From IMG/VR virus record IMGVR_UViG_3300045988_047527: DNA of 42,227 nt; one strand, given 5' to 3'. Source of the DNA: a virus. Position numbers and translations under genes: made by a program. The first letter of the stretch is position 1. The number at the start of each line of letters is the position of its first letter. A model generated the notes under the pieces. The model saw only the letters and a program-made list of their open reading frames with translations. It was not told the origin of the DNA and did not search any database. This document shows, piece after piece, positions 9,352-35,964 of the stretch.

Positions 9352-9404
9352 CCCGCACAGCGGATTACATACAGGCCCGCGGAAAGCCTGACCAAACCCG
9401 CAGC

Positions 9405-9422
9405 ATACCCCGAAAGGGGTAT
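9405..9422 (+). other. Perfect 7-bp hairpin with GAAA tetraloop between the methyltransferase gene and terS
   Basis: ATACCCC-GAAA-GGGGTAT, read directly from the sequence. No U-tract follows. Function unknown (terminator or pac-region structure). Confidence 0.3.
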
Positions 9423-9486
9423 ATATACCGTGCCCTGTTGCACGAGACGGGGACGGGATCAAAAGTTTTTACATGAGGTGGTGAGC

Positions 9487-9882
9487 ATGGCTGCACGGCT
9501 GACGGATAAGCAGAAAAAGAAAATCATTGCTGACTATGTGCAGCTGGGCAGTTATAACGCTGTTTCGAAGATCAACGGTGTATCCGCTACCACGGTAAAG
9601 AACATTGTTTTGAAAAGTGCGGATTTTGTGGAAAAGTGTGAGCAGAAAAAAGAGGAGAACACCGCCGACATTCTGGCATATATGGAGAGCCGCCGAAAAC
9701 AGGTCTGTGACATTATAGAGATTGGTCTTGCTGTGCTTCCAGAGAAAATTCGGATGGCAAAAACAGCTTCCGAAGTTACAACGGCTTTGGGAACGCTGAT
9801 TGACAAATTTACGGCGAATACAGAGCCAAAGCAGGACATCCACCCTCTGTTGCGTGACATGTACGAATCGAGGAAACAATGA
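9487..9882 (+). CDS. terS: Terminase small subunit (HTH type)
   Basis: SD GAGGTGG before ATG 9487. N-terminus reads LTDKQKKKIIADYVQLGSYNAVSKINGVSATTVKNIV. Sits immediately upstream of, and overlaps, TerL. Confidence 0.65.
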   Translation: MAARLTDKQKKKIIADYVQLGSYNAVSKINGVSATTVKNIVLKSADFVEKCEQKKEENTADILAYMESRRKQVCDIIEIGLAVLPEKIRMAKTASEVTTALGTLIDKFTANTEPKQDIHPLLRDMYESRKQ

Positions 9883-29595: not shown

Positions 29596-29908
29596 ACTGA
29601 CCAACTATCTGCCCATGCTGCTGGCCCTGGTGCTGGCGCTGACCCTGGTGACCAACATCATCGTACAGGTGCTCAAGAGCCTGCTGTACGATATGCTCCC
29701 CACCAACCTGCTGGCCTTCCTGGTGGCCGCGGTAGTGACGGTGGGGGCGGGCTTCGGCCTGTGGTCCTATTACCGCTTTGCCATCACCGGCTGGATGATC
29801 GTGGCGCTGATCGCCCTCATCTTCCTGGTAGCCTTCTCCGCAATGTTCGGTTATGACAAACTGATGCAGCTGATGGAGCAGGCGGGGTGGATCAAGGCAC
29901 AGAGGTGA
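29576..29908 (+). CDS. Holin
   Basis: 110 aa with three predicted TM helices, directly upstream of the endolysin gene. Alternative start is ATG 29588. Confidence 0.65.
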   Translation: MKRPMNELTNYLPMLLALVLALTLVTNIIVQVLKSLLYDMLPTNLLAFLVAAVVTVGAGFGLWSYYRFAITGWMIVALIALIFLVAFSAMFGYDKLMQLMEQAGWIKAQR

Positions 29909-29919
29909 GGAGGCGCACT

Positions 29920-30603
29920 ATGGCAACCGCTGAAAAGATATTGGAGATCGCCCGGTCGCAGATCGGGGCCAAAGAATCCCCGGCCAAGAGTGATAATGTG
30001 AAATACAACACTGCCTACTATGGCAGGGAGGTATCCGATGGCAAACACCCCTGGTGCGCCGTGTTCGTCTGGTGGGTGTTCCGGGAGGCCGGGGCTCCCG
30101 AGTTGTACTACGGCGGCGGAGAGACCGCCTACTGTCCCACGCTGATGTCCTTCCACAAGAAGCAGAAGGTGACTGACTACCGGCCAGGAGACATCGTGTT
30201 CTTCAACTTCTCCGGCAGAAGCTCCGCCGGACATGTTGGCATCTGCGAGAGCTGGGACGGGACCTACATCACCACCATTGATGGCAACACCGGAAGCGCC
30301 AGTGAGGACAACGGAGGGGCGGTACTGCGCCGCCGGAGACACAAGAAATTCATTGTGGGGGCATATCGCCCCGAATATCAGGAGGATGATGATATGACTC
30401 AGGATCAGTTTAACAGCTTTATGGACAACTATTTGAAAGCGAAAGCGAAGGAACCGGCCAGCGACTGGGCAAAGCCGTTTATTGATACGGCAATCGATGT
30501 CGGAGCTATGACCGATGTGGGCGGGACGATCGAGCGGCCCAAGTCGTGGATGACCCGTGAAGAGCTGTCCGTGGTGGTTGCAGCGCTGGCAAGGAAGGGA
30601 TAA
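29920..30603 (+). CDS. CHAP-domain endolysin
   Basis: SD GAGGTGAGGAGG. Catalytic Cys context (KHPWCAVFVWW) and His context (AGHVGI...TIDGNT). The C-terminal part is a probable cell-wall-binding region. Confidence 0.85.
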   Translation: MATAEKILEIARSQIGAKESPAKSDNVKYNTAYYGREVSDGKHPWCAVFVWWVFREAGAPELYYGGGETAYCPTLMSFHKKQKVTDYRPGDIVFFNFSGRSSAGHVGICESWDGTYITTIDGNTGSASEDNGGAVLRRRRHKKFIVGAYRPEYQEDDDMTQDQFNSFMDNYLKAKAKEPASDWAKPFIDTAIDVGAMTDVGGTIERPKSWMTREELSVVVAALARKG

Positions 30604-30619: not shown

Positions 30620-30880
30620 ATGGGCGGAAAAGTGAAGCTTCCTCCAGAATTGGCTGACCTTTTACGCTCTGATCTGGAACGTGCAATTTACGAGGCGGCC
30701 CTGCACCGGGACGATGATTTGATTGCCAGACGCTGTATTATTGAAAAATCAGCACAAGTCGATGTTGCGGCTGAGTTGGGCTGGGATAGGTCAACAGTGT
30801 CTCACCACCTTTCGTACATAATGGATGAAGTGAAGCGGTCCGCAAGTAGAATTGCACAAAAAGAAGGAGTCGGGAATTGA
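30620..30880 (+). CDS. Small sigma-70 region-4-like HTH DNA-binding protein
   Basis: The pattern DLIARRCIIEKSAQVDVAAELGWDRSTVSHHLSYIMDEV resembles sigma region 4 / DUF1492-type phage regulators. 86 aa. Confidence 0.5.
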   Translation: MGGKVKLPPELADLLRSDLERAIYEAALHRDDDLIARRCIIEKSAQVDVAAELGWDRSTVSHHLSYIMDEVKRSASRIAQKEGVGN

Positions 30881-30897
30881 CCCGGCTCCTTTTTATT
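30866..30897 (+). terminator. Rho-independent terminator
   Basis: GGAGTCGGG-6 nt-CCCGGCTCC followed by TTTTTATT. Confidence 0.6.
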
Positions 30898-30905
30898 GGT
30901 ATAAT
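30877..30905 (+). promoter_or_regulatory. Near-consensus sigma70 promoter TTGACC-17-TGgTATAAT
   Basis: -35 at 30877-30882. Extended -10 at 30898-30905. The 12-mer TGTGGAAACCCA begins 5 nt after the -10. Confidence 0.6.
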
Positions 30906-31060
30906 TCGGCTGTGGAAACCCACCGTCTACTGTCGAGTTTTATCCGCCTTTGTAGATGGTGTGCGGTTAAAAAAGACGGTTGCCTGACCATCCCGCGAGA
31001 GCGGAAAGGAAGGCGAAATATGTAGCCTCGCGGGAAATAATTCCTCGGGAGGTGATACAT

Positions 31061-31159
31061 ATTACTTTGACTTTCACCTTTGCAGTTTTGGGTGCCATTG
31101 GCTCCATTGCAAGCATTGTGTCCCTCGTGCTCTATGTGCACGATAGAAAGAAGAAGTGA
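31061..31159 (+). CDS. Small hydrophobic peptide (29-32 aa) with Lys-rich tail; candidate type I toxin
   Basis: SD GGGAGGTGA at 31047-31055. The frame ends at TGA 31157-31159. Product is (M)TLTFTFAVLGAIGSIASIVSLVLYVHDRKKK. The only available starts are ATT 31061 or TTG 31067. Confidence 0.4.
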   Translation: MTLTFTFAVLGAIGSIASIVSLVLYVHDRKKK

Positions 31160-31253
31160 GCCGTCTGCTGCAACAGAACGGCTCATGGATGTTTGAGGGC
31201 TAAGCCCTCGGCCCTGTAAGTCTTATGTATGTGGCAACCGTCTGGGTTTCCAC
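31140..31253 (-). ncRNA. Predicted antisense RNA overlapping the 3' end of the small-peptide ORF
   Basis: Inferred from the minus-strand consensus promoter (TSS near 31253) and the hairpin at 31184-31158, which is followed by a U/C-rich tract. Ends are approximate. Confidence 0.3.
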
Positions 31254-31259
31254 ACTTTT

Positions 31260-31287
31260 ATTATACCCCAAAGAAAACGAATGTCAA
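31260..31287 (-). promoter_or_regulatory. Consensus sigma70 promoter TTGACA-16-TATAAT (leftward)
   Basis: -35 at 31287-31282 and -10 at 31265-31260. The 12-mer TGTGGAAACCCA begins 5 nt after the -10, matching the geometry of the + strand promoter at 30877. Confidence 0.6.
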
Positions 31288-31323
31288 CTATGCAGAGTAA
31301 CGAAGTTACGTCGTTACGTATTT

Positions 31324-31356
31324 CACATAAATCCCACATAACTCCCACACAACTCC
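31324..31356. repeat. Three tandem 11-bp repeats CACA(T/C)AA(A/C)TCC
   Basis: CACATAAATCC, CACATAACTCC and CACACAACTCC, read directly from the sequence. One helical turn per unit. Confidence 0.9.
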
Positions 31357-31389
31357 CGCATGGATGCCACCCATGCGGGCTTATTTTAT
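31355..31389 (+). terminator. Rho-independent terminator
   Basis: CCCGCATGG-7 nt-CCATGCGGG followed by CTTATTTTAT. Confidence 0.7.
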
Positions 31390-31487
31390 GCGACAATATA
31401 TCCATGGAGGACGTGGGGAACAAGGGCTGTACACGTCGCAGTCCTCCTCACGGACTCCATTATTTTTATACAAAGGACGTGTGATAT

Positions 31488-31649
31488 ATGACTCCGGTAG
31501 AAAGGCTGGTGGCCGCCGGCATCCGACCGGACTGTGCCGCCGAGAGTGTGATGTGGTATCAGGCCCAGGGGGATGACTATGGGCTCCAAAAATACTTGGA
31601 TGAAATAGAAGCGAGGAAGGAGGCGCTGGACAATGGCCGGATTTCCTAA
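31488..31649 (+). CDS. Hypothetical small helical protein, 53 aa (cargo cassette gene 1)
   Basis: ATG 31488 with AAGGA upstream. Overlaps the next gene by 17 nt. Below the track size cutoff. Confidence 0.4.
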   Translation: MTPVERLVAAGIRPDCAAESVMWYQAQGDDYGLQKYLDEIEARKEALDNGRIS

Positions 31650-32444: not shown

Positions 32445-33206
32445 ATGGATAACGATTTTGCGACTGGCTATGCGCTGGGCAGCGATTCCAACGGCGGAAA
32501 CTGTAACAACGGCGGCTTCTGGGGCGGTGACGGCTGGTGGGCTATCATCATCTTTGCCATGATCTTCGGCTGGGGCCGCGGTGGTTTCGGCGGCTTCGGT
32601 GGTGGCGGTGCCAGCACTGATCCCGGACTCCAGGGCCTTGCCACCCGCGCAGATGTAAACGAGGCCATTGCCTTCAACGGTGTGGAGCGCGGCATCTCTG
32701 CTATCCAGCAGGGCATCTGTGACAGCACCTATGCCCTGAACAACAGCATCACCAGCGGCTTCAACAACACCAATGTGGCTCTGCTTCAGGGCTTCAACGG
32801 TGTCCAGTCTCAGATGTGCAATATGGCCGCTCAGGCTCAGGATTGCTGCTGCCAGACCCAGCGGGCCATCGATGGTGTGAATTACAACATGGCGACCAAT
32901 ACCTGCGCCATCCAGAACACCATCCAGGGCAGCACCCGCGATATCCTGGAGAATAACAACTCCAACACCCGCGCCATTCTGGACTTCCTGACTCAGAGCA
33001 AGATCGATTCCCTCCAGGCGGAGAATCAGTCTCTCAAGCTGGCTGCCTCTCAGGCCAACCAGAACAGCTACCTGACCGCTACTCTGGATGCCCAGACCTC
33101 TGAGCTGATCCGCCGGATCAACCCCATGCCTGTGCCCGCCTATCAGGTGCCCGCCCCCTATCCCTACTGCGGGGCCTATAACAATGGCTGCGGCTGTGGC
33201 TGCTAA
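32445..33206 (+). CDS. Hypothetical membrane-anchored Gly/Cys/Asn/Gln-rich protein (cargo gene 4)
   Basis: 253 aa, SD AAAGGAG. One TM helix (WWAIIIFAMIFGW) flanked by Gly runs. CCC motif. C-terminus is YCGAYNNGCGCGC. Followed by its own terminator. Confidence 0.7.
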   Translation: MDNDFATGYALGSDSNGGNCNNGGFWGGDGWWAIIIFAMIFGWGRGGFGGFGGGGASTDPGLQGLATRADVNEAIAFNGVERGISAIQQGICDSTYALNNSITSGFNNTNVALLQGFNGVQSQMCNMAAQAQDCCCQTQRAIDGVNYNMATNTCAIQNTIQGSTRDILENNNSNTRAILDFLTQSKIDSLQAENQSLKLAASQANQNSYLTATLDAQTSELIRRINPMPVPAYQVPAPYPYCGAYNNGCGCGC

Positions 33207-33257: not shown

Positions 33258-33294
33258 GGGGCGGTGGGCTGAGTGTCTGCCGCCCCTGATTTTT
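33258..33294 (+). terminator. Rho-independent terminator inside the cargo cassette
   Basis: GGGGCGG-15 nt-CCGCCCC followed by TGATTTTT. The SD of the next gene follows directly. Confidence 0.6.
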
Positions 33295-33304
33295 GGAGGT
33301 AATT

Positions 33305-33700
33305 ATGTCTTGTAAACCTGTATGCAGACTCTGTGACCGGCTTGTGATCTCTCAGGCGGTCGCTTTTACCGGCGGGAACCTGGAGATCAACCTGCCTGCT
33401 GGCGCCTACAACAACGGAGAGAAGTATTGCGTGGTCGTGGCTCAGGCCATCCCCGACACCACTACCATCAATGCTCCGGTATATTTTACCATCGGGACCG
33501 GGACTACTCTCTATCCCATGACAAAGCGGAATTGCGCTCAGGTCACCGCCTGTGGCATCCGTACCCGGACCAAATACTCTCTCTGTGTCGTTACTACCCC
33601 AACCGGAGGTTCGTTCCGTATGCTGGGCACTCCCTGCTGCTCCCCCAGCAACAACCTAACCAGCATTGACGGGGGCGCTGCTCCCGCCCCTACGGCGTAA
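33305..33700 (+). CDS. Hypothetical Cys-rich beta-rich small protein (cargo gene 5)
   Basis: 131 aa from ATG 33305 after GGAGGT. Nine Cys, including N-terminal CKPVCRLC and C-terminal PCC. Alternating beta-strand-like segments. Confidence 0.65.
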   Translation: MSCKPVCRLCDRLVISQAVAFTGGNLEINLPAGAYNNGEKYCVVVAQAIPDTTTINAPVYFTIGTGTTLYPMTKRNCAQVTACGIRTRTKYSLCVVTTPTGGSFRMLGTPCCSPSNNLTSIDGGAAPAPTA

Positions 33701-34751: not shown

Positions 34752-35864
34752 TTATGACATTTCTCTATTTCCACCACCATTTCCACCGCCTATTGATCTA
34801 GTCCCATCCAATAAGGCGATACCATTATGGAGTGTTGAGCTGTCTCTGTGGGTGTAAATATTGGCGGTCATCTGAATGTCAGAGTGTCCCATGAGCTCTT
34901 TTGCCACATTGAGAGGGACACCAGCTTTTTGCAAATCGGTGCAAAAAGTGTGACGCAGACAATATGGGGTGAGATCTGGAGCTACCACAGATTCTACGAT
35001 TCGATTCCGCTCGGTCTTTGCGCCTAAGTATAAGTCTAATTCTCTTTTGAAGCCAGTCCAAAGGCGGCGCAGGCTGTTCTCATTCTGAAAGTTCCCAGCC
35101 CCGGTTGGGAATACAGGAGCGAAGGAATTTTTCTTGGCGTTCTGAAGCCTCCAAAGAAGGTCTGAATGGATCGGTATGTCCCGGACGCCGGAATCCGTCT
35201 TTGGACCTTTGATAGCCTGAGAGCCGCTTTCTTTTGCCGCGTGGACATGGATCTCATTATTTGCAAAATCCACATCAGCCCAAGTAAGGGCTGCCGTCTC
35301 CCCAGGACGCATTCCGGTATAGAGTAGGGTAAGAACCCACAGTCCAGCTCGGTGATGCTCAGCTACAGCAAGAATAGCTGCTCGCTCTTCGTCCGTTATA
35401 GAGCGCCGCTGGTGCGTCTGAACATGGGGCAGCTCTAGGAGCTCAGCTGGATCGTATGGAATAAGGCGTGACTGTCTGGCCCTCTTAAGCATTTCCTGCA
35501 TGACCATTCGCAGCTTCTTTACATGGGATGCGGATCTCCCCGCTTGCCCATTTAAAATACGCTGGAGGTGTACGTCCTTCACATCCTTGAGCTTCATGGA
35601 GCCGATGGCAGGCTTGATATATCCGTTGAACTTTTCATCGTACATACCAAGGGATTTCTTGGTCAGCCCCTTCGGGTCCTTATAGGTCGCTTTCCACTGC
35701 TTATACCATGCAGTCACAGTCATCGAACCGCCAATGGCTTCCTCCCCACGTTTGGCTGCTGCCAGCTTTTCCGCCAGCTTAGTCATGGCTTCAAGCTCTG
35801 TTTTCCCTGTTGCCTCGTACTTCTTTCCATTGTACCGGGCGGTCTTTCTGATATATTCGCCCAT
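34752..35864 (-). CDS. int: Tyrosine-type site-specific integrase
   Basis: C-terminal catalytic motifs (LRHTFCTDL and MGHSDIQMTANIYTH). N-terminal SAM-like domain. ATG 35864 lies 8 nt after AGGAGG. Adjacent to the tRNA-like attP core. Confidence 0.9.
   Translation of the reverse strand: MGEYIRKTARYNGKKYEATGKTELEAMTKLAEKLAAAKRGEEAIGGSMTVTAWYKQWKATYKDPKGLTKKSLGMYDEKFNGYIKPAIGSMKLKDVKDVHLQRILNGQAGRSASHVKKLRMVMQEMLKRARQSRLIPYDPAELLELPHVQTHQRRSITDEERAAILAVAEHHRAGLWVLTLLYTGMRPGETAALTWADVDFANNEIHVHAAKESGSQAIKGPKTDSGVRDIPIHSDLLWRLQNAKKNSFAPVFPTGAGNFQNENSLRRLWTGFKRELDLYLGAKTERNRIVESVVAPDLTPYCLRHTFCTDLQKAGVPLNVAKELMGHSDIQMTANIYTHRDSSTLHNGIALLDGTRSIGGGNGGGNREMS
34767..34790. repeat. Two tandem copies of ATTTCCACC(A/G)CC (candidate arm-type sites, right arm; inside the int 3' end)
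   Basis: Read directly from the sequence. On the minus strand they encode the GGGNGGGN C-terminus of the integrase. Confidence 0.5.
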
Positions 35865-35964
35865 TGACAACGCCTCCTATTCTGATAAAATAGAAGGGCA
35901 GATTGCCGACCATAGCTTCTGCCCCCCTTCCCTGCCCGGTGTTGGTAGCGCCGGGTGGGGATTT

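Follow-up and report, generated by a model that had tools for sequence, protein, structure and literature searches.

The 42,227-nt viral stretch analysed here (IMG/VR record IMGVR_UViG_3300045988_047527; below, "the window" means this whole stretch) carries a locus that is probably an autonomous and mobile type I toxin-antitoxin (TA)-like module of a temperate siphophage. It is best read as a cassette of about 350 bp in the prophage of a gut bacterium, encoding a membrane peptide of 32 residues and, convergent with it, an antisense RNA of about 105 nt. A type I TA-like locus had been proposed in a preliminary description of the window, and each structural element of that reading is now backed by comparative evidence; toxicity and antitoxin action we infer. 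The layout is beyond chance, as the same architecture recurs in more than 100 distinct homologous modules with unrelated genomic flanks. The elements of the module, with the evidence for each in brackets, are as follows.

30877-30905, plus strand: promoter of the peptide mRNA, TTGACC (30877-30882), 17 nt, TATAAT (30900-30905) (11/12 plus an extended -10, TG-n-TATAAT).
30911-30922, plus strand: 5' end of the mRNA, TGTGGAAACCCA, 5' strand of a 5' domain, identical to the 5' end of the small RNA (sRNA) (direct reading, repeat analysis, family comparison).
30921-30961, plus strand: helix P1, CACCGTCTAC / GTAGATGGTG, 30921-30930 with 30952-30961 (RNAalifold and pair counts).
30974-30984, plus strand: AGACGGTTGCC, second segment in common with the sRNA, forming the 3' strand of the 5' domain (repeated perfectly, in inverted orientation, at 31233-31243).
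30991-31035, plus strand: helix P2, TCCCGCGAG / CTCGCGGGA, whose loop is conserved and of the GCGGAA(A/T)GGA(A)GGCG type (pair counts).
31017-31024, plus strand: AATATGTA (AAUAUGUA) in the P2 loop, complementary to TACATATT (UACAUAUU) at 31056-31063 in the start-codon region; candidate anti-start element or pseudoknot (both predicted folds).
31047-31055, plus strand: Shine-Dalgarno (SD) sequence GGGAGGTGA (direct reading; of the GGAGG type and mostly 8-10 nt before the start in 61 variants).
31061-31159, plus strand: peptide open reading frame (ORF) from ATT to TGA, (M/I)TLTFTFAVLGAIGSIASIVSLVLYVHDRKKK, 32 amino acids (aa), one transmembrane (TM) helix and a basic KKK tail (translation, family comparison).
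31148-31253, minus strand: antisense sRNA of about 105 nt, consisting of SL1, a single-stranded spacer of about 20 nt, SL2 and a terminator (fold in the family).
31156-31186, both strands: bidirectional hairpin GTGAGCCGTCTG / CAGAACGGCTCAT, terminator of the sRNA, holding the stop codon (direct reading; nine predicted pairs, three compensatory).
31195-31209, minus strand: SL2, GAGGGCUUAGCCCUC (folding of variants).
31231-31253, minus strand: SL1, 5'-terminal hairpin GUGG.AACC[CAGAC]GGUU.CCAC (family folding).
31260-31287, minus strand: promoter of the sRNA, TTGACA (31287-31282), 16 nt, TATAAT (31265-31260) (12/12).
31355-31389, plus strand: intrinsic terminator in the direction of the peptide mRNA, 100 nt past the sRNA start; a read-through mRNA, about 480 nt long, would probably end here (scan; family enrichment).

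Direct reading and a scan both place the two facing promoters at 30877-30905 (plus strand) and 31287-31260 (minus strand), as first described. The extended -10 is likewise present, although its TG had to be moved to 30897-30898. On the mRNA side the promoter reaches at least 9/12 in 106 of 106 distinct modules, and its -10 ends 6-7 nt before GTGG; on the sRNA side it reaches at least 10/12 in 103 of 105. The 12-mer TGTGGAAACCCA does lie at 30911-30922 (plus) and 31254-31243 (minus), each copy 5 nt past a -10, and these are the only two copies in the window, even when one mismatch is allowed (0.23 expected; 2 of 100 shuffles reach two). The inverted repeat that had been noticed around it exists but extends further than noted: a main arm of 25 nt at 80% (30898-30922 / 31243-31267) is accompanied by the perfect 11-mer AGACGGTTGCC (30974-30984 / 31233-31243) and by a third segment, a 13-mer at 85% (31055-31067 / 31218-31230); a 51-nt stem-loop inserted between its first two segments turns the right copy into the left one. 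That both RNAs begin with the same transcribed sequence is not a feature of the promoters; this sequence is the 5' strand of a hairpin domain in both RNAs, and an identical start is common rather than universal, the -10 spacing varying among the sRNA promoters of the family. We read the shared 12-mer as the 5' strand of SL1, with the same hairpin domain predicted in the mRNA, where P1 is inserted at the position of the sRNA hairpin loop and, together with a linker, fills the loop.

A search for the 12-mer and the peptide in relatives, which the preliminary description had suggested, recovered the module in more than 100 distinct versions from viral contigs, genomes of Oscillospiraceae and Clostridia, and gut metagenomes. 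The first scan, with the exact pattern of the -10 and the 12-mer in viral contigs, returned near-identical copies and clearly diverged modules; further probes were the sRNA 5' end, the peptide tail plus terminator, two leader probes and an nhmmer profile. The scans of viral contigs and genomes gave 84 full modules (51 distinct, in 28 clusters), and the leader probe found at least 120 loci in metagenomes, many labelled human gut, which added at least 57 distinct full modules. With one genome per species, a 19-mer scan returned 62 stretches; its matches in Proteobacteria and other phyla were as many as expected by chance, and the genome modules confirmed by nhmmer were mainly in Oscillospiraceae, Ruminococcaceae and Clostridia, including the isolates Hominicoprocola fusiformis CLA-AA-H188, Evtepia gabavorous KLE1738, Faecousia intestinalis CLA-AA-H192 and Ruminococcaceae bacterium AM07-15.

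Compared across these settings (loci are cited below by L numbers), the module appears to be autonomous and mobile. The sequences around it are unrelated between clusters, and some settings are apparently chromosomal, namely near SRP RNA (L140), a ZTP riboswitch (L102) and malK-I (L137). Tandem modules occur in L132, where positions 43-1232 hold two full copies and one sRNA-only copy in 1.2 kb, and in L127 (2346-2904), while the viral contig IMGVR_UViG_3300045988_058281 holds two diverged modules (L006, L065). In L087 (8328-9852) an IS200/IS605-type element, with a 92-aa TnpA-like and a 403-aa TnpB-like ORF as judged from their translations, sits inside the peptide ORF and splits it at ...LSLIYQ|I...; the peptide ORFs of L301, L196 and L237 are apparently frameshifted or truncated. 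Disruption of the peptide ORF by an insertion sequence (IS) or by apparent frameshift or truncation fits the expectation for a costly gene. The same gap of about 1.8 kb between leader and sRNA parts is seen in L056, where we assume the same insertion as in L087.

The small ORF appears to be translated and under purifying selection, as its first description as a real coding sequence implied. The 61 distinct peptide variants, which form at least three sequence classes, are all 27-34 aa long and share a hydrophobic core and a K/R tail; length, the TM-plus-Lys-tail design and the SD are conserved. In the largest class, differences by codon position number 880/621/1227 and pN/pS, the ratio of nonsynonymous to synonymous differences, is 0.39 (120 pairs). 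The SD GGGAGGTGA (31047-31055), the in-frame ATT 31061 and TTG 31067 and the stop TGA (31157-31159) were all found again. The preference for ATT 31061, 8 nt after the SD, proved well placed: relatives of the same peptide class have ATG at that codon (L287, L284, L289, L193, L231) where L211, L120 and the window have ATT, which settles the start at 31061; within a peptide class, ATG alternates with ATT or ATA at one and the same codon. Among the 61 variants the start codons are distributed as follows.

ATA: 26 of 61 variants.
ATT: 15 of 61 variants.
ATG: 11 of 61 variants.
ACG: 4 of 61 variants.
ATC: 4 of 61 variants.
GTG: 1 of 61 variants.

About 80% of the peptide variants hence begin with AUA, AUU, AUC or ACG, and near-cognate initiation appears to be a trait of the family. 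The diverged L003 (about 9386-9723), which starts with ATG, lacks the usual TGA owing to an additional A ahead of the terminator; by hand translation its ORF would continue through the terminator to about 41 aa, which may be a real extension or an assembly error.

The peptide, which had not been recognised at first sight, belongs to no named family in sequence searches of Pfam, NCBIfam and PDB: queries with single peptides and with a 32-member alignment gave only composition-type, sub-threshold matches, among them Gram_pos_anchor, one to Hol_Tox (E=0.17) and one to DUF6556 under its cut-off. The type I toxin families of Pfam, including Fst_toxin, had no match among 32 family peptides at E up to 1. 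A protein database of 5.8 billion clusters holds 12 unnamed, mis-started ORF calls without Pfam assignment. When the window peptide was searched by tblastn against 50,697 phage records (E up to 10; short query, low-complexity filter on), nothing matched, and BLAST of the module DNA against annotated phages and plasmids found no copy of the module, the single match being to the downstream region of a RAGATH-31 RNA and the next gene. Rfam gave no match to the module, either at gathering scores over the whole window or at E up to 10 over 30700-31600 on both strands.

The mRNA leader is 150 nt long and structured, with two covarying helices. P1 is 94% paired, with six of nine pairs changed on both sides, and P2 is 94% paired, with five of eight pairs so changed; for neither did any of 500 shuffles do as well. 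The leader stem first described corresponds to P2 and is now seen as 9 bp (30991-30999 / 31027-31035). Between and within the helices, near-invariant unpaired stretches (30962-30990 and 31001-31015, in all relatives) carry GUGUACGGUUAAAAAGACGGUUGCC and GCGGAA(A/U)GGA(A)GGCG, the latter including an SD-like GGAGG that precedes the real SD by about 40 nt; the conserved loops and linkers are GUGUACGGUUAAAAAGACGGUUGCC and GCGGAAUGGAGGCG. These stretches are more conserved than the peptide, and a search for a pairing partner for them found none. The two CCTC motifs that had been thought to mask the SD have no consistent partner across the family alignment, and a better candidate is the pairing of the P2 loop with the start region. 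Across the family the complementarity is conserved, but this pairing is weakly supported (75.5% paired; 4-8 of 500 shuffles equally good), and its test of cognate against non-cognate partners was not significant (p=0.14).

The leftward transcript, which had been expected to stop at the central hairpin, corresponds to a structured sRNA of about 105 nt whose consensus promoter and fold are conserved. The sRNA gene has its own promoter and terminator, and its product is complementary to at least the last codons and the terminator of the peptide mRNA. Its four-part fold is found in nearly all of 46 sequence variants. For SL1, the sequences of L295 and L064 are consistent, by eye, with compensatory changes. 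The spacer consists of about 20 unpaired, A/C/U-rich nt. MAFFT plus RNAalifold on the sRNA found the terminator only and the middle hairpin is unalignable by sequence, so alignment-free folding was used: the SL2 region of 84 variants has a mean z of -2.05 against shuffles, with 61 distinct hairpin sequences that differ by lineage. The terminator hairpin is followed by UUCUUCUUU. In about half of the modules, that of the window included, 4-7 nt separate the end of the sRNA -10 from GTGG; in the rest the -10 lies 19-45 nt upstream. A drum RNA (RF02958) directly precedes the sRNA, on the same strand, in one large subgroup of modules (L020 7963-8073, L018 8469-8579, L026 762-872, L113 6075-6185), and an RT-2 RNA (RF03077) lies about 5 kb away in L018, L020 and L113.

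The central hairpin joins the two genes. Its presence and its role as leftward stop hold, and its span was corrected to about 31156-31186. The U-tract of the sRNA is the complement of 31147-31155, the Lys codons (AGA AAG AAG AAG, Arg-Lys-Lys-Lys), and the stop codon lies in the stem, so that the basic tail and the terminator constrain each other. Several findings speak for read-through of the hairpin by the mRNA. Only in the sRNA direction is the hairpin followed by a good U-tail (UUCUUCUUU, versus GGAUGUUUG in the mRNA direction). The rightward terminator proposed at 31355-31389 is present, and throughout the family a terminator past the sRNA promoter is enriched, lying within 200 nt in 33 of 50 distinct modules, as against 7 on the reverse strand and 7 in shuffles. 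In one large group, the mRNA-direction terminator abuts the complement of SL1, and its G-U pairs fit only the mRNA strand.

The inverted orientation of the repeat copies gives the two RNAs 5' parts that are identical instead of complementary. These shared parts have a complement only in the antisense of SL1, which exists as RNA only if the mRNA reads through the central hairpin; the sRNA as a whole is complementary to the peptide mRNA under the same condition only. Within the leader, GUGGAAACC (30912-30920) can pair locally with GGUUGCC (30978-30984); over 30914-30920 and 30977-30983 this local helix is 98.7% paired in 26 leaders and shows wobble changes on one side only, with no compensatory changes. 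In the folded 479-nt transcript (30911-31389), both 5' segments pair with the 3' untranslated region (3'UTR) in the minimum free energy and centroid folds (z -5.2), the possible pairing between the mRNA 5' end and the read-through 3'UTR amounting to 11 + 12 bp. Loci found with the leader and terminator probes, hence not selected on sRNA sequence, were used to tally differences between the mRNA and sRNA copies: 16 are wobble-compatible (mRNA U/G opposite sRNA C/A), 3 are of the opposite type and 6 are transversions, and in about ten lineages the same deviation from the consensus is seen, by eye, in both copies. A hok-like fold-back of the mRNA 5' end onto its own read-through 3'UTR, as these folds predict, seems to us about evenly balanced between true and false. 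The pattern of the shared copies may also reflect local hairpins with stronger constraint on the sRNA, or a shared protein partner. A conserved complementarity between sRNA and start region was not found when duplexes of cognate and non-cognate partners were compared: energies of the sRNA spacer with the start region were marginal (p=0.03), as was the pairing of the 3'UTR with the start region through the 13-nt repeat 31055-31067 / 31218-31230 (p=0.056). Control through the 3' overlap is therefore the sole route that the sequence offers.

The module could then work in the following way. A strong promoter would yield an mRNA with a 150-nt structured leader and a 32-codon TM/Lys-tail peptide, and the convergent promoter an sRNA of about 105 nt that ends at the stop-codon hairpin. 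Peptide synthesis would be held very low by the near-cognate AUU start, to which pairing of the P2 loop with the start region possibly adds a throttle. The central hairpin would terminate poorly in the mRNA direction, so that much of the mRNA would read through the sRNA gene to 31355-31389, and the abundant sRNA would pair perfectly with this read-through 3' part, the duplex being led to RNase III-type decay as in RatA/txpA and SR4/bsrG. By analogy with known systems, we infer that the peptide may be a membrane-damaging toxin. Tentatively, a hok-like fold-back might protect or lock the mRNA, with the sRNA competing for the same 3'UTR site. A bolder version, which we regard as doubtful, would make the antitoxin sRNA a structural copy of the 5' domain of the toxin mRNA that competes for the read-through 3'UTR, while the AUA, AUU, AUC and ACG starts gate killing by initiation fidelity (IF3) and thereby sense disturbed initiation, e.g., under phage attack or stress.

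Several points weigh against the type I TA reading or parts of it. The peptides match no known toxin family; SL1 is not at the 5' end of the sRNA in about half of the modules, where a 5' extension of 19-45 nt precedes it; and the downstream terminator is absent in 17 of 50 modules. The pairing of the P2 loop with the start region is statistically weak, and the fold-back cannot be told apart from a 5' hairpin that is purely local to each RNA. Where it does not overlap the 3' part, the sRNA has the same sequence as the mRNA instead of its complement, so its control would depend on read-through, and an sRNA that opens a repressive fold-back could activate rather than repress.

In the window the module comes immediately behind two holin-like ORFs, the gene of a CHAP endolysin and a small helix-turn-helix (HTH) gene, a position that lends some appeal to a role in lysis, with the peptide as a small phage membrane protein (a modulator of lysis timing or antiholin, or a superinfection exclusion protein) whose dose is tuned by the cis-antisense RNA; one family member has a sub-threshold match to a phage holin family and another to Hol_Tox. 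We consider this unlikely, given that the module is autonomous, with its own promoters and terminators and with unrelated flanks that include apparently chromosomal ones, that it occurs in tandem arrays and that it is found disrupted by an IS, all of them hallmarks of TA-type selfish modules, not of parts of a lysis cassette. It is very unlikely that the ORF is untranslated and that the locus encodes a pair of related non-coding RNAs which share a 5' domain and act at the RNA level, e.g., through a common binding protein. Such a pair would be in keeping with the lack of a canonical start codon in most ORFs, with a leader whose conservation exceeds that of the peptide and which includes unpaired stretches that hardly vary, and with the presence of the 5' domain in both RNAs; however, the frame is open for 27-34 codons in 61 of 61 variants, always with a GGAGG upstream and a K/R tail, the third-position excess and the pN/pS of 0.39 are those expected of a coding sequence, and ATG stands exactly at the AUH position in 11 variants.

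The two covarying helices, the highly conserved loops and linkers and the alternative pairings around the start codon could also belong to a riboswitch-like cis-regulator of the small ORF that senses a ligand or factor, the antisense RNA being secondary. Yet Rfam has no match even at E up to 10 (30900-31300, both strands), the regulated gene would be a 30-aa hydrophobic peptide without metabolic link, and the promoter and fold of the sRNA are as conserved as the leader, so that we hold this to be highly improbable. Finally, the 25-nt imperfect inverted repeat around 320 bp might be taken for the recombination sites of an invertible DNA switch, a notion with next to no probability: the repeats are transcribed hairpin strands whose substitutions follow the rules of RNA pairing, no invertase gene adjoins the module, and the one recombinase of the window that was tested, the integrase, lies at a distance of 3.4 kb. 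No flipped isoform was found in 301 loci, one junction being unmatched and the other matching only the normal promoter of L013.

If the locus is indeed a type I TA-like module, it may be compared with the known systems. The likeness to type I TA loci of Firmicutes that had been proposed is borne out, but the nearest layout is that of par (Fst-RNA II), not that of txpA/RatA or bsrG/SR4. In par/Fst, the promoters converge on a bidirectional terminator, and intramolecular 5' helices hide the mRNA 5' end and the ribosome-binding region (PMC7472228). Like par of the Enterococcus faecalis plasmid pAD1 (RNA I - RNA II) and the par-like loci of Firmicutes, the module has convergent promoters that share a single bidirectional intrinsic terminator; its peptide, of about 30 aa, combines a hydrophobic core with a charged C-tail, and the module occurs on mobile elements and chromosomes alike; fst also has a non-AUG start, which is GUG, whereas module starts are mostly AUA, AUU, AUC or ACG. 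The helix that sequesters the mRNA 5' end in par may have a counterpart in the local 5' helix of the module (98.7% paired in 26 leaders, varying on one side only). The two differ in the repeats: those of par are direct, which makes the 5' parts of its RNAs complementary and lets the antitoxin cover the start site, while those of the module are inverted and make the 5' parts identical, and the repeat analysis found no direct repeat joining leader and sRNA gene. Moreover, RNA II is about 40 nt long, in contrast to the sRNA of about 105 nt with three hairpins, and the module peptide has a Lys tail and no match to Fst_toxin, the Fst tail being acidic or mixed.

In habitat and peptide design, the module shares most with the prophage systems of Clostridioides difficile, among them CD2517.1-RCd8, CD0956.2-RCd10 and CD0977.1-RCd11, some of them associated with CRISPR. 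The prophage type I toxins of C. difficile are 30-56 aa long, hydrophobic at the N-terminus and rich in Lys at the C-terminus, and are opposed by convergent antisense RNAs (PMC6563280), whose long complementarity is thought to act by RNA decay (PMC6563280, PMC7699646). The module has no homology to them detectable in the tblastn and DNA searches of phage records, its leader and sRNA structures differ and are conserved as a family of their own, and near-cognate starts and a shared 5' domain are not described for the C. difficile systems in the papers covered. The Bacillus subtilis systems txpA/RatA, bsrG/SR4 and yonT/SR6, for which RNase III-dependent decay is the expected mode (PMC6563280, PMC5848175), resemble the module in their prophage setting, in the small membrane toxin and in a convergent sRNA of about 100 nt directed against the 3' part of the mRNA. 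Their overlapping RNAs have separate terminators, whereas the sRNA terminator of the module is the stop-codon hairpin, and there is no peptide homology; a 3'-3' overlap of the txpA/RatA type (about 75-120 nt) would arise in the module only through read-through of the central hairpin.

Pairing between the 5' and 3' parts of the mRNA, predicted for the module, is also a feature of hok/sok (Escherichia coli R1) and aapA1/IsoA1 (Helicobacter pylori). In hok and aapA1 a long-distance 5'-3' lock keeps the toxin mRNA inert and stable. There, the antitoxin binds the 5' leader of the processed mRNA, whereas the 3' partner of the module's fold-back would be the antisense of the antitoxin itself; in addition, the host of the module is a Firmicute, and its peptides are unrelated to those of hok and aapA1. 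In the literature, of which our coverage was incomplete, we found no type I TA system described in Oscillospiraceae or Ruminococcaceae, and no link of type I toxins with near-cognate starts.

The window itself is that of a temperate siphophage, with genes for a large terminase, portal, major head, tape measure and tail proteins, and its host is best read as a gut bacterium of the Clostridia, of Oscillospiraceae type. The tail genes are followed by the two holin-like ORFs, the CHAP endolysin (29887-30603), the small HTH ORF (30620-30880; weak HTH matches only) and the module, and an integrase is encoded on the minus strand at 34752-35870. The module thereby occupies the classical accessory ("moron") region between lysis cassette and integrase. 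One further element overlaps its left border.

30866-30897, plus strand: terminator hairpin of the upstream HTH gene, GGAGTCGGG / CCCGGCTCC plus T5 (direct reading).

The -35 of the peptide promoter sits in the loop and 3' arm of this hairpin, and in L137 the sRNA -35 likewise lies within the loop of a terminator hairpin. On the other side, a RAGATH-31 RNA (RF03101; 31406-31458, plus strand; 75.2 bits versus a gathering score of 71.8) lies between the terminator 31355-31389 and a 53-aa ORF starting at 31488; it is an element separate from the module and also adjoins a module of the window type in L048. Two downstream ORFs on the plus strand encode proteins of unusual composition, a Gly/Cys/Asn-rich one of 253 aa (32445-33206, phrog_16490) and a Cys-rich one of 135 aa (33293-33700). 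A scan of the window for tRNA and tmRNA genes found none.

On the sequence evidence, the locus is best read as a type I TA-like module of par-like layout whose 5' domains are inverted (mimic) and whose peptides start mostly at AUH/ACG. Type I TA modules are as such expected in prophages; what is new is the size of an unannotated family, the pattern of its start codons and, possibly, mimicry and fold-back. Gene callers miss the family because the peptides have about 30 aa and mostly AUA, AUU, AUC or ACG starts. If the reading is true, the Oscillospiraceae and related Clostridia, gut bacteria that are dominant but little studied genetically, would have a large unannotated family of type I TA modules in their prophages and chromosomes, and it would offer a marker for them and possibly a tool for their counter-selection or stabilisation. 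The natural series of AUG and near-cognate starts at a single codon would make the weak-start throttle directly testable, and in this family RNA mimicry of a target's 5' domain by its antitoxin could be put to the test.

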